Shown piece by piece: positions 8,826 to 54,860 of a stretch of DNA of 64,000 nucleotides. A program made the translations under genes and the position numbers. The DNA comes from an uncultured Cytophagia bacterium. Lineage in GTDB: Bacteria > Zhuqueibacterota > Zhuqueibacteria > Oleimicrobiales > Geothermoviventaceae. A model generated the notes under the pieces. It saw nothing but the letters and a program-made list of their open reading frames with translations, was not told the DNA's origin and searched no databases. How positions within the stretch are numbered: position 1 is the first letter of the stretch; each line of letters starts with the position of its first letter. The stretch covers positions 1 through 64,000 of the forward strand of contig CAZXXS010000056.1 in assembly GCA_964644845.1 (NCBI GenBank), given 5' to 3'.

Positions 8826-8962
8826 GTTGTGCCTCCGTTCGGGCTGTTTCCGGTTGACACGTTGTCAGGAAAACAGGCCCCCGATGTTCCGGCCGTTTCG
8901 TTGGTCTGCTTGGGGTTTTCTGAGAACGAGGGAATTTAGTTGTCTCGTGCTTCGCGGGCAAA

Positions 8963-9067
8963 CGAAAAGTGAACATTCTGCATTTTTCGAGGGAATTTGC
9001 ACCGAGACAAAAGGGCTGAGCGGAACCCGACCACCGTACGGTTTGTCCCTTCAGGTGTTCACTTTCG
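8963..9067. promoter_or_regulatory. Pair of 10-bp inverted repeats (AAAGTGAACA ... TGTTCACTTT) in the upstream region of the exported GHL10 gene
   Basis: An exact inverted repeat lies at 8966-8975 and 9056-9065, 80 bp apart. The first copy is embedded in a local palindrome, CGAAAAGTGAACATTCTGCATTTTTCG. The pair sits 140-240 bp upstream of the minus-strand gene start at 8825. Confidence 0.3.
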
Positions 9068-9583
9068 TTGCTCAGGACGCCGGGCCGTCAGGGATGTCAA
9101 CAGACCCTGTGAGCTTGCAGGAAACTTCGCCCGGACGGCCGGAGGAGACTCAGGACAGCTGAGCTTCAGCCGTCCGGCGGCAGCCCGAAGCGCCGGCAGA
9201 GGTGACTCAGCGACGGGGGGCGTTGCCTGTGTGACGGCTCTTGAAATGACCGAATCCCTGATTTCGAATCACCGACACGAGAGCTTGGTCCTCGCCGCTC
9301 CCACAACGAGCTGCGAGCGGCCTTGCGGGATGAATTCTGTAGCTATCGTGCGCATCCGCCTGCACGGAAGTCTCGGAGCGCGGAGGCCTGCTGCCGCTTT
9401 CGGTTCGCGAACCTACGGCTTGTCGCCGCTTTGTTAACGCGCTCTTCGAGCCCGTGGCAAAGTCTGGAGATTCTGCACTGCACAACGGACTTCCGAGTAG
9501 GGCGAGTCCCGATGCCGGTGCTCAGCCGACGCGCCAGCGTGTGTCCCCGGAGCTGCGGCGAGTCCCGGGGGACGCAGGTAGTG

Positions 9584-29392: not shown

Positions 29393-30675
29393 TCGACCCT
29401 CCTGCAGGTTCAAACCCAAACAGACCGATTTTGAGCACTACGGACGAAGTGTTTTTTGGGTACGTACCTGAGGCCGTCCGACCAATTTCTTGTTGAGCTT
29501 ACCGCCGGAGCTGGTCGGTTTGGCGTGCCGTGCCTGTGCAGTGTCTCCACACAGTGGGGACAAAAGGCGCATTCAGACCGCCGGTGGTCCCAATGCAAAT
29601 AGGGGTAAGTTGGTGTGCAACGCTGTGCGGAGGAACGGTGTTGTCCCTTGGGTTTTGTCTGAACGAGTTCAAAAGAACTCAGGTCAGGACGGGCGGAGGT
29701 CGTGAAGCTTGAGGTGCAAGAACAAGATGCGGACAGGCGTCGTCACTTGAGTTGAAGTAAGGCACGTTTCGCTTCCCTTGTTCCGACAGCGTTTTTTCCC
29801 AGCGTGAGTGTCCCGAGCGGAACCGCTCGTCTTACGCGCCAGCGTCCGCAAAGGTTTCCGGCCGTGGGCAGAGTAGTGTGACGCGGACTCGGACGGGGGC
29901 CCTGTTGTGTGGTCGGGGGCTCGGTGAAAAACGCTTTCCGGCGTTTGCGAGGAGAGCGGCAGGGTTGGGTGGAGGGCTTTTGGTCGGGCGCCGTAAGGGT
30001 GTCTGGCGCCACCAGCAGAAGACGGCATCTCCCGCCGAAACGCGAGTGGGAATCCGAAGATCGGGCCGGCGCGTACGGATGGCGGTCCGCCGTGGCCCGG
30101 TGGGAAGCCCGAAACGAGTATGCTCAGGGGAGGGGAGTGCGAATGGATCGTGAATAACGGATGGCCAACGGCTATTCTTGAGTTTTACAGAGGACTGAAA
30201 TGGTGAGGTCGGCCTTCGGGTTGGGGTGAACTTGGGTGGCGAGGAAAGGAAACTGCGGATTTCTTGGTTACTTAACCGTTTCAGATGTTGGCAGAGGGAG
30301 AAAAAACTTGCGCAATATCGTTCATTTTCGTAAAATTGGTCCAGCTTCCTGGAGGGCCTTTCTTAATCCTGCCTTGCAGTGGACGAGAACGGTTTCGGAG
30401 GCGAACAGTGTGCGAGTGGTACCAGGTAACTCGGTGTCCGAAGAACGCTGTGCCGCAACGTTCTCCGAATTCCCAAGTGTTTCTCTCCCATGATCCTCTC
30501 CTTGTAGTTTTCGATCAGTAAAGTTCAGGTTGTCTTGCTGCGCTGCCCACTGAGGGCAGGCGGCAACACGGCCAAAAACAGTTTGCTGAGCCACGAAGTC
30601 ACTCAATCACAGGCCCGGAGAATCACGTTGGTAGAGGGGTTGACAACGGGAACCGAACAAAATGAGGGACGAACC

Positions 30676-39688: not shown

Positions 39689-41143
39689 ATGAGGCTGATC
39701 TGTTTGTTTGCAGGACTGATGTTGCTGGCCGTTGTGGACGGCTACGCTCATCCCAGCGATCAGAAGTACATTCCTGACCCTGATCCCGCCATTCAAAGGC
39801 GGATCGAAGCCTGGCGGGACCTGAAATTCGGCCTCCTGATGCACTGGGGACCTTACAGCCAGTGGGGTGTTGTGGAGTCCTGGTCGATTTGTTCGGAAGA
39901 CGAACCGTGGTGCAAAAGGCCGTACGATGACTACGAGCGGTACAAGCGCGAGTACGAGCGTCTGAAACTTACGTTCAACCCCGTCAAATTCAACCCCGAG
40001 AAATGGGCCAAAGCTGCCAGGGAAGCTGGGATGAGGTACGTGGTGTTCACGACCAAACATCACGACGGCTTTTGCATGTTCGACACGAAGTACACCGACT
40101 ACAAGATTACGGCCCCGGATTGCCCGTTCAGCAAGGACCCACGAGCGGATGTGACGAGAGAGATTTTCAACGCTTTTCGAAAGCAAGGTTTTTGGATTGG
40201 GGCTTACTTTTCCAAACCAGATTGGCACTGCGACTATTACTGGTGGCGCCGTTTTGCTACACCCGACCGCAACGTCAACTACGACATCAAAAAGTATCCG
40301 GAGAGGTGGGAGAAGTTTGTTCAGTACACGCACAATCAAATTCTGGAGCTGGTGAAGAACTACGGTCCGCTGGACATTCTGTGGCTGGACGGCGGTTGGG
40401 TTCGCCGACTTACGGACAAACAGATCCAGGCGGCCATCAACAGTCCCAACTACAAATTCACCCACATCCAGAGCCAGGACATTCGAATTGAAGAGCTGGT
40501 TAGGAAAGCGCGCGAAGTGCAACCCAACCTGATTGTGGTAGACCGGGCTGTGGAAGGACCGTACCAGAACTACTTGACCCCCGAGAACCGCGTTCCAGAA
40601 CAGATGTTGCCCTATCCCTGGGAATCGTGCATTGTGGCCGGAGGCGGGTGGTCGTGGCGCCCGAACGCCCAGTACAAATCCGCGCGCCAACTTGTCCACA
40701 TGCTGGTGGACATTGTAGCCAAAGGGGGCAACCTGCTTTTGAACATCGCCCCGGGGCCAGACGGCACGTGGGATGCGGCGGCCTACGATCGCCTTGCGAA
40801 AATCGGTGCCTGGATGCGGGTTAACAGCGAAGCCATCTACGGGTCACGTCCAGTGGCGCCGTATTTCGAGGGGAAAGTACGCCTCACCCGGGGCAAGGAC
40901 GGGTCGGTTTACCTGATCTACCTTGGTGACGAGGACGAGCACACGCCCCCTGCCGAAATTGCGGTTTCCCGCTATCAACCGCCAGAGGGAGCTGTCGCCA
41001 GGTTTGTAGGCGTGGATTCCAGGCTCACATGGCGCGGGGTTGGTAGTCGGGGCGTGGTTGTGGAAATCCCCGAATCCATTCGCGACAATCCCCCGTGCGA
41101 CTACGCCTGGACGGTGAAATTCACACCGGGAGCGACGGAGTAA
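39689..41143 (+). CDS. Alpha-L-fucosidase, glycoside hydrolase family 29, secreted
   Basis: GAGGAGG lies 7 nt upstream. Signal peptide MRLICLFAGLMLLAVVDGYA. GH29 hallmark segments are FGLLMHWGPYSQ, YVVFTTKHHDGFCMFDT and ILWLDGGW. Confidence 0.8.
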   Translation: MRLICLFAGLMLLAVVDGYAHPSDQKYIPDPDPAIQRRIEAWRDLKFGLLMHWGPYSQWGVVESWSICSEDEPWCKRPYDDYERYKREYERLKLTFNPVKFNPEKWAKAAREAGMRYVVFTTKHHDGFCMFDTKYTDYKITAPDCPFSKDPRADVTREIFNAFRKQGFWIGAYFSKPDWHCDYYWWRRFATPDRNVNYDIKKYPERWEKFVQYTHNQILELVKNYGPLDILWLDGGWVRRLTDKQIQAAINSPNYKFTHIQSQDIRIEELVRKAREVQPNLIVVDRAVEGPYQNYLTPENRVPEQMLPYPWESCIVAGGGWSWRPNAQYKSARQLVHMLVDIVAKGGNLLLNIAPGPDGTWDAAAYDRLAKIGAWMRVNSEAIYGSRPVAPYFEGKVRLTRGKDGSVYLIYLGDEDEHTPPAEIAVSRYQPPEGAVARFVGVDSRLTWRGVGSRGVVVEIPESIRDNPPCDYAWTVKFTPGATE

Positions 41144-41436
41144 AGGAACCGAACTCCAGGCAGGATGGAATTGATTTTCGAAAGAGATGCGCCACTGGAA
41201 GGCCCCTTGAAAAGTATTGAAGCCCTGGGGCTTGCGGACCGCACCGGGGTTTGCACTGCAGATGAGTAGCGCCCTCAGCCGAATGCCAAGCCGCCGTCGC
41301 AGCAGATTTGCAGGGGGGACAGGGTCGGCAGGGTGAGATTGCGCTGACCGTACAGCTTACCCTGTGGCACTTCGGGGTAAATCCTCCTGTACAGTGGGCA
41401 AACTCGCGGCGCCGTTGAAATTCAAAGTGGACAATG

Positions 41437-42813
41437 TCAGCTGCGGGTTTGGCGCCTGTCCAGGGAATCTGTTACCGCACGGTAAATCAGCAGCGCTACG
41501 AAAGCCGCCAGGCCAATGCCTGCGTACACGTACCAGATGACGTGCGCGTGGGCGTAAGCCGCTGGCATGGGCCCGTGGCCGGCCAGAGCGGCGGCGTGTT
41601 GCGCTTGTTCCGCTGCTGAAAGTGTGTGAGGATCAGGGCAAAAGGCGTTCAACAAGTAGCCGGAGATGGCAAAGCCAAAAAGCCAGGCGAAGAACGTGGT
41701 CAAGTGGGCGTAACCCATGTAGAGGCCGACCTCGTCTTTAGGGGCTTGTTTGGACGCGTACTCGTAGAAGCGAGGCGAAAGAAAACATTCGGCCAGGCCC
41801 TGAAGCGCGATGCCCAGGATCAGCGCCACCGTGACCGGGTGCAGGTGGACAAAGCCGAGATGCACGGGGTTTCCGAACAAGCGAGCGAAAAGCGGGCTCA
41901 GGCTAACGGTGAGGGCGGAAAAGGGGATGATGAGCAGTGCGATCGCGATTGAGCTTACCGGCCGAAGCTTGCGAACCAGGTGGGTGATTGGGACGACGAA
42001 AATAACGACCACAAGGGGATTGATGTTCGCTAACCACTCCGGTGCCGCATGCTCGCCGATGAGCCGCAGGGCGTACTTGGGCATGGTGGCGTACAATTGA
42101 CCCTGGATTGTCCAAAAACCGGCCACGATGAGAATCAGGATCATAAAACGCACGTTCTGTACAACCCTTACCAGCCCACGCCATGCCTCTCGCAGACTCT
42201 TACCCATGCCGCTTGTGTCCACGTTGCGGTAGAGAATCACGATCACTGCAAGGGCCAACAGCGACATCCCCGCTGAGTAAAAGTTGATGTACTTCAGTCC
42301 AAGCTCAGTGCGCAGCGGTTTGGCTACGGTTTTCCCAAAAAACGCGCCGATGTTCACCATTTGGTAGAAAAGGGAGTAGGCGCGTGCTCGGTTGATGTCA
42401 TCAGAGGTTTTGGCCACGGTACCGGAAATGATCGGCTTCACGAATGAACCGCCGAGCATGATGATGAAGAGCGAAAGCAGAGCTGTTACTTTGGTCTGGA
42501 AAGCGCCCAGGAGACCGTAGCCCGCAGCGAGCAACGCGAAGGCGATGATGAGCGCCCGGCGGAAGCCGAGTTTGTCGGCTAAGGCGCCTGTAAAGGTGGG
42601 GGCCAGGTAGAGTAACGAGGCAAACCAGGCGACGACCCAGCCAGTCTCGACGTCGGTGAAGCCGACCTCACGTGTCAGGTAGAGGGTGAGAGTGATGAAC
42701 ACGCCGTAGTAGGCAGCGCGCTCGAAGAGTTCGATGACGTTGGCTGTCCAGAATTCTCGGGGGAATCTCCAGGTGAGACCTGAGCTGCTGTTTGAGGACA
42801 TGCGGTTACCCAC
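41437..42813 (-). CDS. POT/PTR2-family proton-dependent oligopeptide transporter (MFS)
   Basis: The ELFERAAYYGVF signature (ExxERFxYYG) sits near the N-terminus, with 12-14 TM helices. Confidence 0.8.
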   Translation of the reverse strand: MGNRMSSNSSSGLTWRFPREFWTANVIELFERAAYYGVFITLTLYLTREVGFTDVETGWVVAWFASLLYLAPTFTGALADKLGFRRALIIAFALLAAGYGLLGAFQTKVTALLSLFIIMLGGSFVKPIISGTVAKTSDDINRARAYSLFYQMVNIGAFFGKTVAKPLRTELGLKYINFYSAGMSLLALAVIVILYRNVDTSGMGKSLREAWRGLVRVVQNVRFMILILIVAGFWTIQGQLYATMPKYALRLIGEHAAPEWLANINPLVVVIFVVPITHLVRKLRPVSSIAIALLIIPFSALTVSLSPLFARLFGNPVHLGFVHLHPVTVALILGIALQGLAECFLSPRFYEYASKQAPKDEVGLYMGYAHLTTFFAWLFGFAISGYLLNAFCPDPHTLSAAEQAQHAAALAGHGPMPAAYAHAHVIWYVYAGIGLAAFVALLIYRAVTDSLDRRQTRS

Positions 42814-43215
42814 GATTACGATTCACGACTGCCGTTGCCATTTGACCAAGTTCCAGCAAGCGTGTTTCCGTAGAGGCCCTGCAGCGTTCATCGGCGCCAC
42901 CCCCGTTTTGTGGCGTCCGTCGATGCGGGTGCATCCTTGACCGCTGGGTTGTGGCGAGGACCTCGGGTTCTTCCACGTTTACCAACAAACTCGCGCCGCC
43001 GAAAGTGCGTTTGTTGCGGAACCGGACGCTCCACCGCGACCGAATTGCAACGGAACGTAGCGCACAGGTTGCGCAGGGCGCTTCTTCACTGTGCTGCTGG
43101 TAAGTGGATTGTAAGCCCTCGCCCAAAAACACGTAGCAAGGCACCTTGCGCGTTTCGTCAGACGTTCCCGATTCCACTCCGGCGCGGAGCGGGGTGTGAC
43201 TGGACTTGAAAGCCG

Positions 43216-46200
43216 CTAAGACCGGATCAACACTTTGAAAGTCCGGATCTCGTGAGGCCGGATCTGAAAGCGGAACCCGTTTGACTGTTTTTCCACCGAG
43301 CCGGGCGTGGAACGTTCGATCAGATCCACTTCTTGCACCTGACCGAGGGACCGATCCAGCACCACAGACACCAGAGCAGAGCGGCCTTCGGTTTCCACAA
43401 AGCGGAGGATCCAGGCGTCGTTGTCCTCCGCACGTTTGATCACGTTCAGGATCACATTGTCCGGTGAAACTTGCACAAAGGCGTGTTCCCTCGGCAGTCT
43501 TCCTTTGTGGGAGGCCGCGCGGAAAGCGACAAGGTGCTGATTGTACTCGATGCCCCGCCGCATTGTCTTTGCTACCCGCCAATCGCCCTGGTGAGGGTAG
43601 ACAGCGTACGCAAATGTCTGGTAGCCTCGGTCGGCCATTGGGTCAGGCTCGGTTGGCGAGCGCAGCAGGGACAGGCGCATCACGTTTCCTTTGATGTCCC
43701 AGCCGTACTTGCTGTCGTTCAGAATGCTCACGCCGTAGCCTTCAGAGGACAGATCAGCCCACCGGTGGCCCGGTACCTCAAATCGGGCCTTCTCCCAGGA
43801 AGACGAAAAGCCTGTGGAGCGCTGGATCGTTCCGTACGGGATTTCGAACGTCGCACTGTCCGCACGGACCGTCACCGGAAACGCGACTTTCAACATTTTG
43901 TGCTCTTCCCACCATTCTACGCGGTTGCGCACCTCCAGGTAGGGCAGATCTGCGTACACCGACACGTACTGGTCGAAGAACGAGGAGGGAAAATTCTCGG
44001 CGGGCCATTTGCTGTTTTTCTGCTCGCCGAGAAACTGGTGCCGCACGTGAATTGTGGCACGAACGGGTCCAGCCTCCACCAGCTCCACAACTGTGGCGCT
44101 GTCCAGGTCAATGGGTTCACCTTCGAAGCGCAAGTTCCAGGCGTCGACTGCCTTGTTTCGCAGGAGCTGCAGCAGGTTTCCGCGGGGTTCGGCCAAAACT
44201 TCCCGCCCGGTCGGCCGGTGGACGAGTCGGGTGAGCAAGCCTGTGTGCGGATCGAGTTCGGCTTCGACGAACGTGTTCGCCAGGTGGGTACGGTCCGCTT
44301 CGAGCGCCGTCTTGGCCGGGCTGAAACGCCGTTGAACCAGTCGGTACACTTTGTAGCCGAAAGGTGGTACGTCGTGAGCGATGAACAGCAAGGTAGCACC
44401 GGTTGGACTGTTGTCGACGATTTGGGTTGGCACTGGGGTCCCGTCGGGGGCGAGAACGGACCAGGCTCGATCTTTTTCCAGCCGGCCGAGTGGGACGGCC
44501 ACGCGATCTGTACGTTCCCAGCTCAGTGGATTGAAAACAACCAGAGCTTCACCGGAGCCACGGGTGTCGATCTGACGAGCCAGCCGACGCAGGGATGTGT
44601 TGAGGATGTCCCGAGCAAGAGTTTTCGCCTGTTGGTAGTCGATTTCGGTGTCGTGGTAGACCGGGTTGATGGAGGATCCCGGAAGAATGTCGTGGAACTG
44701 GTTGAAAAGAAGCGTGTGCCAGATGACGTCGAAATCCCGCTTAGGGTAAGGCTCGCCGTAGAGCGATGCGAAGGCAGCCGCTTTCTCCGCCGTCAGGGTG
44801 AGGCCTTCGATTTCGCGGTTGTGCTTCTTCGTTCTTGCCTGGGAAGTGTAAGTGCCGCGATGGTACTCAAGGTAGAGCTCCGTTTGCCAGGACGGTAGCT
44901 TTGCCTTTTCAGAATCGGTGATCGAGTCAAAGAAAGCCTTTGAAGTCGTCAGTTTTACGTCCAGAAACGCTGGCGAATTGATCTCCTGCTTGGCTCTCCG
45001 AAGCATTCGGATTGTCGGACCGCCGCCGTGGTCGCCCACACCGTAGAGAACAAGCACCTTACCGAAGCCGAGCTGCTGCTCTTCGTGGTGGCTGAAATTG
45101 ATCAGGTCGGAGGGGTTCAAGTCGTGGCCGTAGCCGCTTTCTGGGATGTAGCTCATCACGCGGCTTCCATCTGGCGCCACCCACCAGAAAAACCGGTAGG
45201 GAAATTTGTTGGTGTCGTTCCAATTCAGCTTGTGCGTGACGAAACCTTCGAAACCGCTACGCGCCAGGATTTGAGGCAGATTCCAGTTGTAGCCGAAGGA
45301 ATCTGGGATCCAGCAAACTTTCACATCCACTCCGAATTTCTTCAAGAAGTAGCGCTTGCCGTAAAGCACCTGACGGACGAACGACTCGCCAGACGGCAAA
45401 TTGCAATCCGGTTCCACCCACATCCCGCCAGCTACTTCCCAGCGACCTTCTTTCACCTTCTGACGGATTTGCTCGAAAAGGTCGGGGTAGTAGGTCTCCA
45501 TCCAGCGGTATGCCGCTGCTTGTGTCATCGTGTAGTGAAAATCTGGAAAAAGCTTCATGATTTTGAGCACGGATCGACTGGTGTTGCGAACCACCTGGAC
45601 CGTTTCGCGCCACGTCCACAGCCAGGCGAGGTCGATGTGGGCGTACCCCGCGGCGTAGATGTGGTACTTTGCCCGAAGCTGGTCCCCGAGCGGGCGGAGG
45701 ACGTCCATTTGGCGGTTCAATTCGTCGATGAAAGCGTCCTCGTCGCCTCTCTGAAAGGCCTTGCTGCGGACCGCACGGGCCGCCACGGAGTCCACCTGAG
45801 CGTACCAGTAGTCGGGATTGTCGGTAAAAACCTGGGCCAGTCGTTTTGCGAGGAGCAAACGAAGTACGCTGCTCTGAAGCTTCTTCTGGAACGCTTCCAT
45901 TCCGCTGATGTGCATCTGCGCGTCGTAAAGTTTGCCGTACCCGGGATGGTTGATGCCGCGGATGGCGATGACAAAGCGTTGGCCTGGCTGGACATTCCTG
46001 GCGATGACAAAATGGCCTTTGTCCCACTCGAAGCTACCCAGGTATTTGCCGTTGACGTAGACCTCTCCGCCGTTGTCGATGTTCAGGTCGAGCGTCAGGT
46101 CGCGGCCAGCAAGTGAAAAACCGCCGATCTTCTCGGGAACAACGAAGGTGGTTCGGAACCAGACGTTCGTCTCCGGAAGGTCCCAGGTGTAACCAATGAA

Positions 46201-46407
46201 GGCTACGTCCCAATCGGAATCGTCCAGATTGGGGTCTTCGCCTCCGGGCTCGCCGCCGATTTTGACCTTGAACTGGCCGATCCCGCCGTAGGCGAGCAAG
46301 TTGAGAATTTGCATGTCGGTCATCTGGGTGTCTCGGGCGCCGGCGGGCTTTACGGTGCCCACGAGGACTGCCAGCGCGAGAAGGAGGGAATAACGGCGCA
46401 TCGTCAA
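43216..46407 (-). CDS. Glycoside hydrolase family 38 alpha-mannosidase, secreted
   Basis: Signal peptide MRRYSLLLALAVLVGTVKPAGA. GH38 catalytic-region blocks are HIDLAWLW..., GGMWVEPDCNLPSGESFVRQ and WIPDSFGYNWNLPQILARSG. The full length is about 1060 aa. Confidence 0.85.
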   Translation of the reverse strand: MTMRRYSLLLALAVLVGTVKPAGARDTQMTDMQILNLLAYGGIGQFKVKIGGEPGGEDPNLDDSDWDVAFIGYTWDLPETNVWFRTTFVVPEKIGGFSLAGRDLTLDLNIDNGGEVYVNGKYLGSFEWDKGHFVIARNVQPGQRFVIAIRGINHPGYGKLYDAQMHISGMEAFQKKLQSSVLRLLLAKRLAQVFTDNPDYWYAQVDSVAARAVRSKAFQRGDEDAFIDELNRQMDVLRPLGDQLRAKYHIYAAGYAHIDLAWLWTWRETVQVVRNTSRSVLKIMKLFPDFHYTMTQAAAYRWMETYYPDLFEQIRQKVKEGRWEVAGGMWVEPDCNLPSGESFVRQVLYGKRYFLKKFGVDVKVCWIPDSFGYNWNLPQILARSGFEGFVTHKLNWNDTNKFPYRFFWWVAPDGSRVMSYIPESGYGHDLNPSDLINFSHHEEQQLGFGKVLVLYGVGDHGGGPTIRMLRRAKQEINSPAFLDVKLTTSKAFFDSITDSEKAKLPSWQTELYLEYHRGTYTSQARTKKHNREIEGLTLTAEKAAAFASLYGEPYPKRDFDVIWHTLLFNQFHDILPGSSINPVYHDTEIDYQQAKTLARDILNTSLRRLARQIDTRGSGEALVVFNPLSWERTDRVAVPLGRLEKDRAWSVLAPDGTPVPTQIVDNSPTGATLLFIAHDVPPFGYKVYRLVQRRFSPAKTALEADRTHLANTFVEAELDPHTGLLTRLVHRPTGREVLAEPRGNLLQLLRNKAVDAWNLRFEGEPIDLDSATVVELVEAGPVRATIHVRHQFLGEQKNSKWPAENFPSSFFDQYVSVYADLPYLEVRNRVEWWEEHKMLKVAFPVTVRADSATFEIPYGTIQRSTGFSSSWEKARFEVPGHRWADLSSEGYGVSILNDSKYGWDIKGNVMRLSLLRSPTEPDPMADRGYQTFAYAVYPHQGDWRVAKTMRRGIEYNQHLVAFRAASHKGRLPREHAFVQVSPDNVILNVIKRAEDNDAWILRFVETEGRSALVSVVLDRSLGQVQEVDLIERSTPGSVEKQSNGFRFQIRPHEIRTFKVLIRS

Positions 46408-46495
46408 CTCCTCTTTCAGTCAGATCTCGGTTCCAAGATTCGGAATCGTGTTTGCCGCTTTCACGATTTGACAGCATGCAGGTTTTTCGGGACCA

Positions 46496-48559
46496 TCAGG
46501 GCGGCGAAAAGCGACCGGCCATTTTCACAGCCAGGACGTTGCCCTCTAAATCGGCTACCCAGAGCGTGTCGGCCTTTGCGACCGGGTTTGCAAAAATGAA
46601 ATCGCTTCCGACTTGAGCGGTCGCGACGATGTGACCCGTTGCGCTGAGAACTTGAACGGCCCGACCGTGGAGATCAACTGAAGAGACGTACGGGCCTGTG
46701 TTTACTGGAGAAGCATCAAAGAAGGCGGTTGCAACCGAGCGGTCCCAGACCGGCTCGTTGTTCCGCAGTTGAAATGCCAGAAGGTGACCGTGCAGAGTCG
46801 CTGCTACAAGGAGAGAATCGCCTGTGACGGTTGGGGAGGCGTAGTGACACGCGCAAGGCCAGGTCCAGAGAATGCGACCGTCCTGAAGACTCGCTTTGTA
46901 GAGGCCCGGGGCTTCGGATCGCCGTGGAGCAGCACAGAAAAACACGAATCCGTCTGCGATGACGGGACTTGCAGTTGCTGGCGCGCAGTAGGGGGAGCTG
47001 GTTGGACGGACCCGCCAGACGCTACGCCCGGTCGTTGCTGAAAGGGCGTGCAAGAAGCCGTCCCAGGAGCCAACCAGCAAAAGCGTGTCCGCAAGGACAG
47101 GCTGCATTTGAATCATTCCGAAAGGACCGGCACGCCAGAGCAAAGTACCCGTTTCGAGCTCCAATGCCAGTAGATTCCCCCGGGAGGTACCGATGTAAGC
47201 CGTGCGTGACGCCAAAGCGGGTGGCGCAAAGATCGGTTCGCGGGCGTCGAAGCGCCACACGGGGGTACCGTCGTCGGTCCTGAATGCTTCGACGACACCC
47301 GAGAGGGTTGCGGTAACGATGATGGTCGCGTTCGCAGCGAGACCTTTGATCACCGAGCCCGACAGCCGTTGCTGCCACAGGAGGTGCCCCGTGGGCGGGT
47401 CGAGCGCGGTAAGCCGGCCGTCGCTGGTGGCAACAAACAGGCGATTCGCCGCGAGGGCAAGAGGAGCCTGAACCCGGGCATGGAGCGTCGTGCTCCAGAG
47501 CAAGGCCTTGCCGAACGTGAACGGAAAATCGCGCTGCCACAGGCTGTCGGCACCTCGGACAAGTCGAAGCGAAAGGGTGTGTTGCCCCTGGATTTGGATG
47601 GGCAGGCGCAGATCGGTGCTGTGAGTTGAAAGGAGCCCCCGCTGCCACCGGTCGTGATCCAGACGTACCAAGATGCTGTCCGCCGCGGGCAGGTTACGAA
47701 CGAGGAGACCAGTCTCAGTGACGACGAGCTGGGTTTGGTCGAGCGGGCTCGTTGTTTCCCCGGATGTCGGCGAGTGGAGGGCGATGGCAAAAGTACCGAG
47801 CAGGGAATCGCTGTCGGCCAACCTGGCCTCACAAACGAGGGAATCGCTGTGCACTCGAAAGAGCAGGAAACCCCGGGAACGCACAACAGCGGGTGCCATG
47901 ACGAAAGGGAGACCGTTTAGCTGCCACCGGCGGTAACGGTGGCCGTGGCCGGCCGACAGCAAACGTACGTTGTAGTTTCGAAGGACGTGCAGAAGACGAT
48001 CTGTGTCACAGGTGAAATCCCGATCCGGGTAGAACACGGGGTGGTGCATGAAAAGGAGGCGGGGTGTGTCTCTCGGAACCGCTGCCAGCTGTTTTGCCAG
48101 CCAGCGCTGTTCGGCAGGTGAAAGATCGCCCCAGGCTTCCAGCGGCAAGGCCGTGTTGATGCCGATGAACTGGATGTTTTCGTGGACAAACGCGAGATGC
48201 GGCACACCTGGGAACCGCTTTGCAAGCTCTTGGGGGGTGTACGAGGACCAGCGGACGTCGTGATTTCCGAGCAAAACGTAGATGTTGAATCCGGAAGAGT
48301 CAAGCAGGCTCTTGCACAGTCGCAACTCCTCAGCCCGCGCCATTTCAGAAATGTCACCGGTAACGAGAACGAAGTCTGGCGGGGGGCTCAAGTTTCGCAG
48401 CGCTTTGAGCGTTGCTCTGAGGTCCGCTTGAGTTGCGGAACTCGACAGGTGAATGTCTGTGATCTGAGCGAATGTGAAGTCCGCGGCGACAGAAGCTTGT
48501 ACATGCGGGAAAACACCGAGGAGGAAGGCGAAGAGCCACCTGCTCAGTTTGCGGAGCAT
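46496..48559 (-). CDS. Secreted calcineurin-like metallophosphoesterase fused to PQQ-repeat beta-propeller
   Basis: A signal peptide runs from M16 (MLRKLSRWLFAFLLGVFPHVQA). The N-domain has GDISE...GNHD...MHHP...GHGH metal-ligand motifs. The C-terminal half has repeated LW/WR...DG...G PQQ-type blades (LLWQQRLSG, PVWRFDA, LLWRAGP, ILWTWP). Confidence 0.65.
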   Translation of the reverse strand: MLRKLSRWLFAFLLGVFPHVQASVAADFTFAQITDIHLSSSATQADLRATLKALRNLSPPPDFVLVTGDISEMARAEELRLCKSLLDSSGFNIYVLLGNHDVRWSSYTPQELAKRFPGVPHLAFVHENIQFIGINTALPLEAWGDLSPAEQRWLAKQLAAVPRDTPRLLFMHHPVFYPDRDFTCDTDRLLHVLRNYNVRLLSAGHGHRYRRWQLNGLPFVMAPAVVRSRGFLLFRVHSDSLVCEARLADSDSLLGTFAIALHSPTSGETTSPLDQTQLVVTETGLLVRNLPAADSILVRLDHDRWQRGLLSTHSTDLRLPIQIQGQHTLSLRLVRGADSLWQRDFPFTFGKALLWSTTLHARVQAPLALAANRLFVATSDGRLTALDPPTGHLLWQQRLSGSVIKGLAANATIIVTATLSGVVEAFRTDDGTPVWRFDAREPIFAPPALASRTAYIGTSRGNLLALELETGTLLWRAGPFGMIQMQPVLADTLLLVGSWDGFLHALSATTGRSVWRVRPTSSPYCAPATASPVIADGFVFFCAAPRRSEAPGLYKASLQDGRILWTWPCACHYASPTVTGDSLLVAATLHGHLLAFQLRNNEPVWDRSVATAFFDASPVNTGPYVSSVDLHGRAVQVLSATGHIVATAQVGSDFIFANPVAKADTLWVADLEGNVLAVKMAGRFSPP

Positions 48560-49393
48560 GAATCCGAGTCGATGGGGACCAGCGTCAAGTAGGAGCGGAA
48601 GCACTGTTTACGACATCTCCAGGTCTTGTCCGTTGTGCCTCTGTGAGGACAGCGGGAGACTTACGTTGGCAACAAGGTAAAACTTCCCTGACAAGGAAGC
48701 AAGGCGAAACTTGTGCTGGGCTGCGCCCGAAAGTCGAGTTTTCGGTTTACGTTGGGGATTCGCTCGCTGGAACGGGCGCTTGCTTTACGTGAGCAAAGAC
48801 AAAACCGGCGGGAAAACCAAAGGTTGAAGCTGAACGGGGTCGCCCGGAGGCGAAATCTCCGGGTCACGGACAAGAGCTGCTTGCTAAGAAAGGCCTTAGG
48901 CGTGGGGTCAGCAGCTCGTCGTGAGGAGCGTGTAGAGGGTGGGGCCTGACCCGAGGCTCCGCACACGAGGGAGATCTCCCGGAGGATCCCGGGCAAATTG
49001 AAAAGGAACGGGGAAATGGCCGGGTGGTTTCAAAAAGTGAACGAATTCTTGCCTGTGTGCGTGCTGTTGACTACATTCAGAACGGCAGGGCCCCCATTCG
49101 AAGACATGAACAGCGACACAGAAGGGGGAAATCGGGATGGCTGTTCGGGGCGTTTGGATCAACGATCGAACGCGGCGAAGAGCCACTCGAGGGCGTGTTT
49201 TTGCTTCCAGAGCAGGTCGAAGGAACGGCCTGTGCCCCTCTTTTCCGGGAAAGAAGCCCGCGGAGAATTTCTCCCGCAGGAAGCGGTGACTAACGGTAGT
49301 ATCCACACAAGGAAGGCTTGTGTTCGCTTGCATCAGGGCCTTCTGCAGATGCGTCGGCTACGGAAGAGCGAAAAACGCGCGGAGTTCCCGAGG

Positions 49394-50743
49394 ATGGGCG
49401 AATTGGGCCGTAAGAAGCGTGTCATGATCGTGGACGACGATCCAGACATGCGAGAGGTTCTGTACAAGAAGCTGAAAGACAAGGGGTACGTTGTCCTCAC
49501 CGCTGCGGATGCGGGTTCGGCTCTGCGGGTGTTGGAGTCCACGCCGGTGGATGTTGTGATCACGGACTTTAAGATGCCCGGTGCCAGCGGTGTTGAGCTC
49601 GTTCGCCACATCGGAGAGAATTTCCGGGACACGCTTACGATCATGATCACGGGTTACGCTTCGATCGAAGGGGCTGTCCAGGCGGTAAAAGCGGGTGCTG
49701 AAGAGTACCTGCCAAAGCCGTTTACTTACGAACAGCTTTACGCCGCCGTGGAGAAGGCTCTTAAGAAGCAGGAGATCCGCAAGGCACGAGAACCGGAGGT
49801 AGTTGCGCCCCAGGGGGAGTTCCACGGCTTGATCGGCGTGTCCCGACCGATGCAGGAAGTGTTCAAGGCGATCAAGAAGGCTGCGGCCACCAATGCCACC
49901 GTGCTGATTACCGGGGAAAGTGGTACGGGCAAGGAACTTGTAGCACGAGCCATCCACTACAGCAGCCCGCGCGCCTCCGCGCCATTTGTTCCGGTGAACT
50001 GTAGCGGTATCCCTGAAGGGCTGATCGAAAGCGAGCTGTTTGGGTTCGTGAAGGGTGCGTTCACTGGAGCGAACGAGACACGGGCTGGGTTTTTCCAAAC
50101 GGCAAACGGAGGCACGATCTTTTTGGACGAAATCAGCAGCACCTCGCTGTCCATGCAGGCGAAACTCCTCCGTGTTTTGCAGGACAACGAGGTCAGGATG
50201 GTTGGATCCAGCAAGACGAAGAAGGTGGACGTGCGCATTCTTGCTGCTACCAACAAGGACCTGCTGGAGCTGGTACGGAAGGGGTATTTTCGTGAGGATC
50301 TTTACTACCGGCTCAACGTGATTGCCATCGACCTACCGCCGCTGCGGGAAAGAGGGGAAGACATTCTCTTGATGGCCAAACACTTTGCGCAGAAATTTGC
50401 CAGTGAAGTCGGGAAGCCTGTGCCTGTGTTCAGCGACAGGGTTTTGGAAATCTTCCGCGACTACCCCTGGCCTGGAAATGTACGCGAGTTAGAAAATCTG
50501 GTTCGGCGGCTCATCGTGATGGTCGATCGGCCCGTGATCGATGTCCGGGATCTGCCGTCGCACATGCGTTTTGCCATGATTCCGGGCAGCAACTTGTTCC
50601 GCAGCCTGGCCTCTGTGGAGGCCGAGTACATTCGCAACGTGCTCTCCAGTGTGAACGGCAACAAAACGCGAGCGGCCCGCATTCTGGGCATCGATCGCAA
50701 GACCCTGCGCGAGAAGCTAAAGCGCTACGGGGAGGGCGCGTAG
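49394..50743 (+). CDS. Sigma-54-dependent (NtrC-family) response regulator: receiver + AAA+ activator + Fis-type HTH
   Basis: Receiver domain MIVDDDPDMREV...D...K. AAA+ sigma-54 interaction domain with GESGTGKE Walker A, the GAFTGA loop and RVLQDNEVRMVGSS. C-terminal HTH (KTRAARILGIDRKTLREKLKRYG). No adjacent histidine kinase. Confidence 0.85.
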   Translation: MGELGRKKRVMIVDDDPDMREVLYKKLKDKGYVVLTAADAGSALRVLESTPVDVVITDFKMPGASGVELVRHIGENFRDTLTIMITGYASIEGAVQAVKAGAEEYLPKPFTYEQLYAAVEKALKKQEIRKAREPEVVAPQGEFHGLIGVSRPMQEVFKAIKKAAATNATVLITGESGTGKELVARAIHYSSPRASAPFVPVNCSGIPEGLIESELFGFVKGAFTGANETRAGFFQTANGGTIFLDEISSTSLSMQAKLLRVLQDNEVRMVGSSKTKKVDVRILAATNKDLLELVRKGYFREDLYYRLNVIAIDLPPLRERGEDILLMAKHFAQKFASEVGKPVPVFSDRVLEIFRDYPWPGNVRELENLVRRLIVMVDRPVIDVRDLPSHMRFAMIPGSNLFRSLASVEAEYIRNVLSSVNGNKTRAARILGIDRKTLREKLKRYGEGA

Positions 50744-53175
50744 CTGAGACGGCCGCGTTCGGCGGCGTGGCGCAGCTCGAGTCGTCCCGGCAACCCAAAG
50801 GGCGGAGAATCGTCTCTTTGCTCCCAGTTCGCTCGTGAATCAAGAAGCAAAATCGCTACGCGTTTCTCCGTTCTTCCAGGAGAGGGAAAAATGGCGACAC
50901 GATGATGGCGCATTTCGGGCTGTGGATGTCCCCTCGAGTCAAACCAGCAACTGGAAGGCTGCGTTTGAATTGGGCTTTGTGAACTTTCCGATTGCGGCTC
51001 AACCTGCCAGGTTGACACGCCGACTGCCATCCTTTTCATGTTGCCTGTCCGCCACTGCGCAAGCTTCGAATTCAGTTCCCAGCTCGACTTACGACGGTTC
51101 AGGACCCTCCGCACCGAGCAGTAGTTTTTGGCCTCTGCGTGTGTTTCCGGCGGGTCCCTGCCACCGCAAATGAAAGTCTGTCGGGCTTGGTGCTTTTGGA
51201 TCGGGCCTGCGGTAGAAGCACTCTCGGGATCTGGATCACGCGGGCTTGCGAGACGATGTGGTAACTGAGCCTCGTTCACCTGCTCCCGACCGCCGTGACC
51301 TAAACTGTAGGGAGGGGGACTTTCCGACGCCGGGTGAATTTGCCAAAAGATCAACTTGCCAGTTTGACCTGCAAATCCCTGAGTAGAACCCCATTTGGCT
51401 GGTAGCAGCGCTGCGGAACACAGCCACGGCCTCTTTTTTGATGGATCTGGAACCCCTTTTCTGCGAAAGGACCCAAGCGTTCTGGTCCGCTCTTACTCCT
51501 GACGGCCGCTAACACACCTTCAGAGCGCGTGGCGTGTGCCTGGTTCAGATGGCGCTCCGTTCCTCCAGCTTCTACCTGGGTTGTGATTCCTGGCGCCGAT
51601 TTCGCAGCAGCCGCCGTCTCCAAGCAGACAGCAGCGGTGGTGCGAAATTCCCCAATCCGTTTCCCGAGTCTTGTTTTCTCTGCATGGTGGGATTGAACTG
51701 AAAAACGTACGAGTGGCCCACGCTGCTGTACACGAAGAGAATGGTGAAGTGTGCGACAAGGGCCGAGCCAAAGCAAACACGAATGTTCTGGCTGGTCGGC
51801 AACCTGGCAAAGCTGCGAGGTCACCTCTGGCTATCAAATTGACGCTGCAGTGAAAAGAGGCCGTGGTAAGAGAAACTTCAAGCGACCGAGGAGGATCCCC
51901 GCTACTTACTGCTTTGTAAGGTGGCTGCAGGTCCTTTTGCGGCTCCGGACGAGAGCCGGAGAGTTGCCTGCAAAGCCCGGTCGGTCCTTCGATTCATTCT
52001 TTCCTGCGGTGCTGGGCGGGAGAGATCCCCGGGGAGACGACGCAGCACCTTGGCTGGCATTCCCGCTGCCCGCTTTGATCCAGTGCCGACGGTTGAGCCT
52101 TTAAGAAGCTTGTGGAAAAATCCCAAACGTAGAAAACCACGGAGCCACAAAGGACACAGGGACGTGACAAACCTCGTTGAACAAGCGACTGTGTTGACGA
52201 GGCTTCCAAACCGTAGTTACCCTGCTGGACCTGTTGAGCAGTGCGGCAGGGTTCGGTCTTTGGTCTGTTTCGAGTAGCTTCGGTCAAGTTTCCGGGATGA
52301 GGTTCTGTGCGAGCGGTGCGCTCTTACAGGCATTCGCGTTCCTTCACCGTCCTCTTGTGGTATCCTCGGTGCCCTCTGCTCCGGGCCTCCGTGGTGAGAG
52401 GATGCTTTTTCCGAGGCCTCTTAAAAGGTTTGCGAAAAAGGCCAGAGCCACCGAGACCCAGAGCGCACGGGGGAAACACGCAGGGGGAACCAACGGGGTC
52501 TGCTGTTGCGCAACGAGAGAACGGTAATGCTGACCATTCCGGTCAGGGAGATGAGCACTTACGTAACACGGGGATTTCATTCGAGTTGTGTGGACCTTTC
52601 GAGTGCGGCATTAGCTACATGCCCCTGCGAAGCTGGCATGTAGCACTCGGACGGCGCATCTGGGCACGCAGTTCTCTGCGCGGCCTCTGTGCCCTCGGAG
52701 CCTCTGTGGTTTGTCTGCGCTTTTTCACAGGGCTCCTGAGCGCTACGCAGAACCCGGTTCATCTCGGCGTGTGTTTTTGAAAATAGGGGAATGGACCAGG
52801 CGGATTCGCTGTTCTTCGGGTGGCTGCACGTTTGGTGAAACGTGTTGCTGGATCCGGGAAGGTGCATGAGGGTGGGGCAAAATGCCCCGGTGAGGCATTT
52901 CGTACCGTACATTCTCGCCCCGTCCGGGCGTTTGTCAGCTGTTTTTGTGTTGGATGCGGAGGCGGTTGCAAAAGGCGCGTGTCGTCCTAACACTTTGTAT
53001 GTCGGGGAGTTAAGTGCGATGATCAAAGCTTCATGCTGGCAGGGTTGCTCGATGCTGGTGCCAATGGAATGGATGTTGCAGGTAGCGAACCGCCCAAACG
53101 GGAGAAAGTGCGCCCACGGGATCTAATGATGAATGGAGGGAGGAATTTTCGGCGCACAGTTGATGGGGAACGGCA

Positions 53176-53532
53176 TTGGCTGCAGCCCAGACGCGGACGG
53201 CGGTGCGCGGTGGGATGCAGATTCTGGAGTCAGAGCTCCTGTACTTCGCATTTCAGTGGCTCGTAGATTCGTTTCTTGCGCTGAGAGACAACGGAAAGGG
53301 GTGCTGCGATTTTCTGACTCGGGGCGGAAGCGGTGGTTTGCCGTCTCACGCGAGCGGGTTCGCGGTGGACCCGCGGGGGTCGTTCCTCATCATCCTGAAG
53401 TCCTTCCACACCTTTTCTTACCTGCACAGGATGTGCGTGTTGGGTCAGCTGAACACGGACGTGCTTGAGGGCCTGTCCGAATGCATGCTGACTGAGGGCG
53501 CTTTCGTGCAGCCTATCCAGTGCACGATGTGA
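53176..53532 (+). CDS. Possible small protein (about 105-118 aa) inside an otherwise gene-free region, hypothetical
   Basis: It is the only ORF in 50744-54116 whose third codon positions are strongly G/C-biased, like the genuine genes in the window. It has no recognisable family and no obvious ribosome-binding site. Confidence 0.2.
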   Translation: MAAAQTRTAVRGGMQILESELLYFAFQWLVDSFLALRDNGKGCCDFLTRGGSGGLPSHASGFAVDPRGSFLIILKSFHTFSYLHRMCVLGQLNTDVLEGLSECMLTEGAFVQPIQCTM

Positions 53533-54116
53533 GCACGGTTTGTCGCTCGATGCCGGTGCACACGGAATCCAGCTACAGAGTTTAGGACAAACTCTTCCTT
53601 GTCTGCAAAAGCCAACAGATCAAACAGTGAAGCTTTTGCAGGAATTTCTGCCGCCCGGTCTAAGGGAGTTTGGACACGACGGGTGAAGTCTGCAATTCGG
53701 GCGAGTGACCGCTAAAATGTGTTGCAGGAGGCGCAAGATTCGTAGTACACGGACATCCAAGCCAGGCAGCGAGTGGTCCTGGCAGCACACACTTGCTTTT
53801 TCGGCTCCTGTGGTCGGGCCGCTGTCGGACTGGTTTGCCGGTGCGGTAGCGGCTTTGTTGTAGATGGACGAAACCGGGGCTCGTGGCTGGCCCCTCGCAC
53901 GACGGTAGAAAAGAGGCAGAGACGGCACTCGAGAATGGCCGCAATTTCAACAAACTATCTGTGGTGGTGCTCTGTTGCCAGGTGCGAAAACTTGTTACGG
54001 TCGATTAATTCCGCACTCTGCGTGCTTGAAGTCTAAATAAGTCATGCACTTGTGCGGTTACTGGTCTCCGAGATGCCGTGAGAGGCTGCTGAGCCGAAAC
54101 CACCGGGACTGATAAA

Positions 54117-54860
54117 ATGACGACGAGCGAAGCGCAGGCTTTGATTACCGACAGGACCATCGAAGCCATGGCTCGTGGCTTCTACAGGGAAGCTGCCAGC
54201 TACGGCTTCAAGCAGGTTGATTACGTGAAGTTCGCAAATGCGCTTCTCGACCTGTCCATGCGCCAGAATGGCAAGGGCGAAGCGACGCTCCGCGCTGAGA
54301 ACCCGCGGCGTACTGCTGTGCCCGGAGCAACCAGGTTACCGCTGGTTGGTGAGCGCGTGAAGATCCGCGCGTTCGAAAGGAAGGATCTCGATCTGGTCCG
54401 GCGCTGGCTGGACGACCCGCACGGCCGCTACTTCTTGCTTTCGCGCACAACCGCGCGGTCTCTGGATCCCGAAGATTTGCTCACCCGCGACGACAGTGTG
54501 GTGGGTGTCATTACGCTCCTGGATGATGCACCGATTGGTCTTCTCGCTTACCTTGACGTGGACCGTGTTCAACGAAAAGCCGAGTTGCGCAAGCTGATCG
54601 GTGAACCGGCGCATCGGGGCAAGGGCCTGGCTCACGAGGCAACGCGGCTGTGGATCGATTACGGTCTCACATCTTTGCACCTGCGCAAGATCTACGTGAA
54701 TACCTTAGACACGAACATCCGCAACATCAAGCTGAACAGAGACCTGGGTTTCAAGGTTGAGGGGCTCCTGAGGGACGAATGTTTCTTTGATGGTCAGTAC
54801 CACGACATCATCCGAATGGCCCTCTGGGCAGACGAGGTTGGGGATCGGGGAGAAGCTTGA
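54117..54860 (+). CDS. GNAT-family N-acetyltransferase with about 85-aa N-terminal extension
   Basis: The C-terminal 160 aa carry a GNAT fold (VKIRAFERKDLDLVRRWL... with an acetyl-CoA-binding R/Q-x-x-G-x-G/A-like segment HRGKGLAHEA). It lies directly upstream of the megasynthase. Confidence 0.7.
   Translation: MTTSEAQALITDRTIEAMARGFYREAASYGFKQVDYVKFANALLDLSMRQNGKGEATLRAENPRRTAVPGATRLPLVGERVKIRAFERKDLDLVRRWLDDPHGRYFLLSRTTARSLDPEDLLTRDDSVVGVITLLDDAPIGLLAYLDVDRVQRKAELRKLIGEPAHRGKGLAHEATRLWIDYGLTSLHLRKIYVNTLDTNIRNIKLNRDLGFKVEGLLRDECFFDGQYHDIIRMALWADEVGDRGEA

Follow-up and report, generated by a model that had tools for sequence, protein, structure and literature searches.

Positions 50744-54116 of the window (the whole stretch of DNA analysed here, 64,000 nucleotides of contig CAZXXS010000056.1 in assembly GCA_964644845.1, from an uncultured Cytophagia bacterium) lie between a regulator gene and a polyketide synthase (PKS) gene cluster. 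On the left, the flanking gene is a sigma-54-dependent response regulator (49349..50743, + strand; its start is uncertain and could be 49349, 49394 or 49424). On the right, the first gene of the cluster encodes a GNAT acetyltransferase (54117..54860, + strand), assigned by Pfam and by the gene tables of two contigs carrying the same cluster (L001 and L002), and is followed from about 54990 by a FAAL-ACP-KS megasynthase. The intervening 3.4 kb is the largest gap between long open reading frames (ORFs) in the window. It looks like a genuine regulatory region, neither a set of dead genes nor a known RNA family. Comparison with other strains and with two sister species divides it into a spacer (50744-53064) and a conserved part (53065-54116), which starts with a sigma-54-type promoter element.

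We scanned the stretch with a codon log-likelihood score trained on the window's long genes. The score stands at 0.2-0.4 in the flanking genes, in the regulator up to 50743 and in GNAT from 54117, and at about 0 or below in all six frames across 50744-54116, with a single weak bump of 0.19 near 53200. The ORFs inside the stretch measure 60-209 aa, lie on both strands, overlap one another and give Arg/Pro/Ser-rich translations. Pfam finds no domain or remnant in stop-masked translations of all six frames, and ARAGORN finds no tRNA or tmRNA in the stretch. The first-pass annotation of this DNA had reported exactly this, short overlapping ORFs of biased composition and no credible coding gene, and the codon scan and the six-frame Pfam search bear it out. 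It had also called every other part of the window tightly packed with genes, which is overstated: further gene-free gaps of about 0.8-1.1 kb separate long ORFs at about 8826-9583, 29420-30534 and 48605-49393, and this genome seems prone to long intergenic regions. Finally, it had proposed an Rfam search of the stretch. We ran Rfam 15 and no family reached its gathering score in the whole 64-kb window; at E<=10 only two noise matches appeared (Guanidine-II at 18 bits for a cutoff of 32, speF at 12 bits for a cutoff of 37, E 2-9).

The organization of the stretch emerges when it is compared with its relatives. Two sister lineages were recovered, one represented by L088 and the other by L087 and L089. 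L088 is one 3034-nt contig linking the 3' end of the regulator (85% nt identity) to GNAT (86% aa identity) across 2.06 kb that contain no credible gene. L087 and L089, which are 95-96% identical where they overlap, have the same layout, with the regulator at 94% and GNAT at 84% aa identity to those of the window. Regulator, promoter and GNAT are thus found in the same order in three species. In neither lineage does the first ~1.0 kb beyond the regulator align to the window. The alignment then begins exactly at TGGAATGGATGTTGCA (53065-53080) and proceeds as one block, at 70-77% identity, into GNAT.

Downstream of this boundary lies a conserved non-coding leader of about 1035 nt (53081..54116, + strand), covered in L088 by a single alignment at 77% that runs from 53065 into GNAT. 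In the two sister species, the degree of conservation over 53065-54116 is roughly that of the GNAT gene, but the pattern is not of the kind left by a protein. When substitutions between the window and L088 are counted by codon phase per 150 nt, those in GNAT fall mostly in the third phase (2, 1 and 26; 2, 1 and 21), whereas those in the leader are evenly spread (9, 7 and 12; 11, 6 and 10; 6, 8 and 7). Many of the leader's indels are not multiples of three, the comparison with L089 gives the same result, and no leader ORF of at least 20 codons is intact in all three species. Since the leader diverges less from L088 (about 25%, and 14-20% in its best blocks) than GNAT third positions do (about 44%), it is under purifying selection. 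Its last part, just upstream of GNAT, contains conserved AT-rich blocks (CTATCTGTGGTGG; TTGTTACGGTCGATTAATTCCGCA; TTGAAGTCTAAATAAGTCATGCACTTG; 53953..54052, + strand), possibly a second promoter or an operator. The leader was seen in this narrow clade only: a leader profile run with nhmmer met no further copy in the fetched loci or elsewhere in the window, and a metagenome scan with a conserved leader block returned only one more conspecific contig, L090.

Sigma-54 promoters are recognized by an invariant GG (-24) and GC (-12), 10 nt apart, within TGGCAC-N5-TTGCW. The element at the conservation boundary, TGGAATGGATGTTGCA (53065..53080, + strand), has its GG at 53066-67 and its GC at 53078-79, 10 nt apart, and two mismatches to this consensus. 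It is identical in L087, L088, L089 and L001. Three facts give it weight as a promoter: it is invariant in three species, conservation begins precisely there, and the adjacent gene encodes a sigma-54 activator. The transcript is predicted to start near 53091. A 27-nt direct repeat (81% identical) is found at 53044-53070 and 53542-53568; the element's first six bases (53065-53070) fall within the first copy, and the two copies flank an orphan 118-aa ORF discussed below.

The translation of the left-flank gene contains the Pfam domains Response_reg, Sigma54_activat (E 1.5e-70), AAA_lid_14 and HTH_8 (a Fis-type helix-turn-helix, HTH) and a GAFTGA motif (KGAFTGA): it is an NtrC-class AAA+ sigma-54 activator. 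Its orthologues in the sister species (94-98% aa identity) lie upstream of the same cluster. Among labelled genomes, the closest relatives are on a contig of a 'Calditrichota' metagenome-assembled genome (MAG; 98% aa in the best segment, 84% nt) and in Planctomycetales MAGs (62-63%). Orthologues at 61-68% identity (L007-L010) have a different gene context and hence are uninformative.

Conservation in the spacers, which otherwise cannot be aligned, is confined to copies of a 17-bp dyad, TGGKGCRAAATKCCCCA. Its 7-3-7 geometry resembles that of NtrC sites, and its left half, TGGTGCA, is identical to an NtrC half-site. The distal copy in the window, TGGTGCGAAATTCCCCA (51638..51654), is the sole conserved island in its neighborhood and a candidate activator (enhancer) site. 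The proximal copy, TGGGGCAAAATGCCCCG (52873-52889), belongs to a conserved block (52872..52925, 83% identical to L088 1018-1071), a candidate upstream activating sequence that also holds a weaker adjoining copy on the minus strand (52891-52907). Each sister contig has the same pair of dyads, at 513 and 1019 in L088, at 159 and 856 in L089, and at 2117 and 2877 in L087. In all three species, 189-192 nt separate the proximal dyad from the -24 element downstream; sigma-54 upstream activating sites are typically about 80-200 nt from their promoter.

To explain these observations, we propose that the stretch controls the GNAT-PKS cluster in cis and has the layout of an enhancer-dependent sigma-54 promoter, a reading that we consider probable though far from certain. 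Once activated, the NtrC-class regulator would bind the 17-bp dyads, both the pair ~190 nt upstream of the promoter and the far-upstream copy, and from there would open a sigma-54 RNA polymerase sitting at TGGAATGGATGTTGCA. Transcription would then proceed from near 53091 through the ~1-kb untranslated leader, and a hairpin with a U-tract at 53816-53863 would either attenuate read-through into GNAT-PKS or put an end to it. The other ~2.3 kb would be a largely unconstrained spacer that has grown longer in this species and in which structural variants concentrate. The first-pass annotation had suggested a structured RNA or a large regulatory leader controlling the GNAT-PKS operon. The leader half of that idea fits the right-hand third of the stretch, 53065-54116, because this part is conserved at about the level of GNAT, is non-coding, starts at a sigma-54-type promoter and has an activator gene adjacent. 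The RNA half fares less well, as no RNA family was found and the stretch as a whole has no excess folding energy.

Local structure in the leader is nevertheless worth describing, although beyond the terminator-like hairpin the support for it is modest. RNAalifold with column shuffling gives + strand z-scores of -2.3 to -2.8 over 53294-53450, where the signal is confined to this strand, and of -3.7 over 53765-53919. The second interval contains the terminator-like hairpin of the model (53816..53863, + strand): 17 pairs, formed by 18-nt arms (53816-53833/53838-53855) with one bulge each around a UUUG loop, and a tail UUUGUUGU (UUUUGUUUUAU in L089). At its base, the stem shares positions with the T-rich run CUUUGUUGU (53853-53861). 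In the three species, 96% of positions pair and three one-sided changes are compatible with pairing. With its GC-rich hairpin followed by a U-tract, the conserved element at 53816-53855, about 260 nt ahead of GNAT, resembles an intrinsic terminator. Farther upstream, 53290..53460 (+ strand) could fold into a multi-helix structure of seven helices and 46 pairs (92% paired). Close to the predicted 5' end, RNAalifold proposes a hairpin GUGCGCC...GGCGCAC (53108..53157, + strand) that encloses part of the purine run GGAGGGAGG (53135-53143); its outer stem is invariant and its inner stem has one compensatory change, from U-A to G-C. A perfect 10-bp hairpin, CTGCAAAAGC and GCTTTTGCAG separated by 19 nt, is also present in the leader at 53603-53641, and by eye only its AAAAGC/GCTTTT core seems kept in the sister species. 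We also considered one large structured RNA covering the entire stretch and rejected it on its mean folding z-score of ~0.

Several points weigh against the proposed regulatory layout. Promoter matches of the quality of TGGAATGGATGTTGCA are no more frequent in the window than chance predicts (35 expected, 31 found), so that the case for the promoter rests on conservation and context. With at most one mismatch, the dyad has just two occurrences in the 64-kb window (51638 and 52873) and two per sister species, and with at most two mismatches it occurs 4 times in 1.34 Mb of unrelated loci, but these counts are indicative only because the consensus was derived from the same sites in which it is counted. 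One conspecific haplotype, L001, has kept the cluster and lost the adjacent regulator and the distal dyad. More distant GNAT orthologues do not share the arrangement: L091 (61% aa identity) has neither leader similarity nor a sigma-54-like element, and L094 (59% aa) has no leader similarity, which makes the leader clade-specific; neither adds a lineage to the covariation analysis. As for RNA, single-sequence folding detects no global structure (mean minimum-free-energy z-score of the whole stretch ~0 versus shuffles, on both strands), and the terminator-like stem has no compensatory change. The 6 compensatory pairs of 53290-53460 were reached by 22 of 500 shuffles, with slid controls giving 1-4, and this evidence is suggestive at best; three diverged lineages can only yield weak covariation.

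The conserved hairpin also allows the leader to be divided differently. Thus, 53081-53863 could be a separate non-coding RNA gene of ~770 nt, transcribed from the sigma-54 promoter and ended by the hairpin, while GNAT-PKS would be transcribed from a promoter of its own at 53953-54052. Such a gene would account for the U-rich tail of the hairpin 260 nt before GNAT, for the separate AT-rich island beyond it, kept in L089 despite the adjoining 84-nt deletion between the two, and for the consensus-structure signals on the + strand. However, it has no Rfam match, no sigma-70 promoter is recognisable at 53953-54052, the structural evidence is thin, and the leader is directly coupled to GNAT in 3/3 species. 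We therefore regard this division as rather unlikely. A related proposal, which we put forward tentatively and think doubtful, is that ~53091-53863 constitutes a previously undescribed structured RNA of ~770 nt, restricted to a small uncultured clade and driven by the sigma-54 promoter, that would control the PKS in cis, by regulated termination, or in trans. The leader may act as an attenuator, an independent RNA or a protein-binding platform.

Could the stretch instead consist of decayed pseudogenes, the alternative offered in the first-pass annotation, or of small real genes? The candidates are the 118-aa ORF (53176..53532, + strand), which had been singled out as the one gene-like exception, a 57-codon ORF at 53717-53863 and a short upstream ORF at 53163. 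The weak codon-score bump near 53200, the annotation of the 118-aa ORF by gene callers in several assemblies, the similarity in three species of the first ~13 codons from the ATG at 53163 (MGNG.xCSPxADG) and the intact 57-codon ORF of L088 all speak in favor of such a reading. Yet the six-frame Pfam search is empty, and tblastn with ORFs from related loci gives nothing significant outside the shared region. The 118-aa ORF matches its own species only, has no third-position excess in its substitutions, and is frameshifted with internal stops in both L088 and L089; we rejected it as a gene because it is an orphan broken in both sister species. The largest spacer ORF (209 aa) fares no better, with a match only to its same-species copy in an exhaustive search of 1.84 billion representatives. 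Both decayed and small real genes are thus highly improbable. Public assemblies annotate genes at 50725-51354 (- strand; 184/234 aa) and 53176-53532 (+ strand; 118 aa). These are same-species orphans without coding signal, and gene callers very probably produced the annotated orphan ORFs (of 118 aa and of 209/234 aa) as artefacts.

Most of the stretch is a non-coding, fast-evolving spacer (50744..53064) of 2321 nt, compared with about 1.0-1.08 kb in the sister species. Apart from the dyad blocks, it cannot be aligned to L088, L087 or L089. The regulator followed by the same spacer sequence is found in three independent assemblies beyond the window: L086 matches window 48240-52455 at 99.6%, L096 matches 41149-52696, and L097 matches 40975-53042, thus carrying the regulator and a spacer that ends 23 nt before the promoter. 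Other contigs (L001-L005 and L090) come from the cluster side and carry the cluster with sequence upstream of it. In L001, an NCBI contig of 143 kb, similarity to the window begins only at ~52403-52421. Left of this structural-variant breakpoint (52403..52421), a PHP-domain gene and a PAS/GAF sensor take the place of spacer and regulator. L001 and L096 belong to one MAG, GCA_054028295.1, in which one contig carries the regulator and the spacer and ends at window 52696 while the second carries the PHP flank, the downstream sequence and the cluster; the fork lies at window ~52403-52509, L001 8211-8400 and L096 11285-11559. Because both come from the same MAG, two alternative left flanks exist in the population (less probably in one genome) and converge at ~52420-52509. 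The fork may mean two strains or a duplicated segment, the genome-internal version being the less probable.

Divergence between the window and L001 is about 6% over 52420-53150 and drops to 0.3-0.4% from 53150 onward. Single-nucleotide polymorphisms (SNPs) are distributed as a mosaic among contigs, many of which end within 52455-53433. Such a mosaic would fit alleles recombining at a structurally variable locus, and contig ends would be expected at such a fork. An assembly artefact, in which a regulator contig and a cluster contig were joined chimerically across a shared or variable segment, is very improbable. In its favor, contigs from several metagenomes do end in this interval, the MAG above splits the locus between a contig that comes from the regulator side and stops at 52696 and another that carries the cluster behind a different left flank, and the window's own set of alleles over 52403-53150 is linked to the cluster in no other sequence seen. 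Against it, single contigs in two sister species link regulator, promoter and GNAT in the same order, L097 falls only those 23 nt short of the promoter, and the SNP mosaic resembles recombining alleles at one locus.

The same variable segment harbors the two hairpins on which the first-pass annotation had drawn. Both exist, at coordinates slightly different from those it gave: a 6-bp hairpin CTGACC attcc GGTCAG (52530..52546, + strand; arms 52530-52535/52541-52546) and a perfect 10-bp hairpin GCTACATGCC/GGCATGTAGC (52614..52644, + strand; arms 52614-52623/52635-52644), whose loop is 11 nt long rather than 12. They are not conserved across species, as both lie within 52403-52870, a segment with no detectable counterpart in the sister species, and a T>C change at 52616 breaks the 10-bp stem in the conspecific strain L096. 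Nothing points to a function for either. Perfect hairpins of at least 10 bp occur at 4 places in the 64 kb, versus about 1.25 in composition shuffles, and two of the four are inside the stretch (52614 and 53603). A perfect 14-nt inverted pair, CCACGGCCTCTTTT at 51424-51437 and AAAAGAGGCCGTGG at 51853-51866, 415 nt apart, flanks the distal dyad. A mobile element in the spacer (insertion sequence or miniature inverted-repeat transposable element) was considered and rejected: there is this one 14-nt inverted pair, without more copies in the window, and no Pfam remnant. The stretch has no repeat family and resembles no plasmid or phage. A metagenome scan with a 24-mer from 52300-52323 gave no match, the 24-mer having later been found to begin on an SNP position.

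On the cluster side, the strongest structure signal of the area lies across the start of GNAT, where + strand windows over 54080-54277 reach alifold z-scores of -5 to -6. A conserved 21-bp hairpin, GAAGCCAUGGCUCGUGGCUUC...GAAGCUGCCAGCUACGGCUUC, is located inside the gene at 54162-54210 (codons ~16-32); most one-sided changes in its stem keep pairing via G-U. Upstream of the more distant GNAT orthologues, the 1.77 kb at 4227-6000 of L091 contain no ORFs other than two orphans (156 and 119 aa), and L094 has a sigma-54-like TGGTTCGACTGTTGCA at 1316-1331, 122 nt upstream of GNAT. Long, poorly coding leaders may therefore recur in this GNAT-PKS cluster family.

For a polyketide cluster that looks silent, in an uncultured lineage, the enhancer-dependent layout proposed here offers a concrete regulatory model that can be tested. 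It names an activator, candidate binding sites and a promoter, and activating clusters of this type in a heterologous host requires just such information. The leader deserves specialist attention as well: it is unusually long, 1 kb of untranslated sequence under purifying selection that no RNA family accounts for, and hence a candidate new cis-regulatory RNA.

How does this system compare with known ones? Like NtrC-type enhancer-dependent promoters (e.g. glnAp2), it combines a GG-N10-GC element with an adjacent gene for a bacterial enhancer-binding protein (EBP), a candidate 17-bp dyad site ~190 nt upstream with a remote copy, and an activator made of a receiver, an AAA+ domain (GAFTGA) and a Fis-type HTH. 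Unlike them, its -24/-12 hexamers are off consensus (TGGAAT / TTGCA), its dyad sequence is its own, the distal site is 0.7-1.4 kb away, the target is a PKS cluster and the transcript would start with a 1-kb leader. Long structured 5' leaders with terminator/antiterminator attenuators are found in riboswitches, T-box leaders and the EAR- or LoaP-type leaders of polysaccharide and polyketide operons. The leader described here shares with them its length and conservation ahead of a large biosynthetic operon and its conserved hairpin with a U-tract. It differs in having no Rfam match and no NusG/LoaP-type gene seen adjoining, and in being far longer than typical riboswitch leaders.

The architecture as a whole belongs to a known kind, since control of natural-product clusters by sigma-54 and an EBP (Nla28) is documented in Myxococcus xanthus (PMC7910581) and sigma-54 systems are reported in Planctomycetota (PMC12316311). 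As in the Nla28 system, a sigma-54 promoter and EBP half-sites, all of them candidates here, precede genes for polyketide or non-ribosomal peptide synthesis. Most such promoters in Myxococcus xanthus are intragenic, however, whereas the one proposed here, in another phylum, sits between genes, in a very long gap next to the EBP gene.

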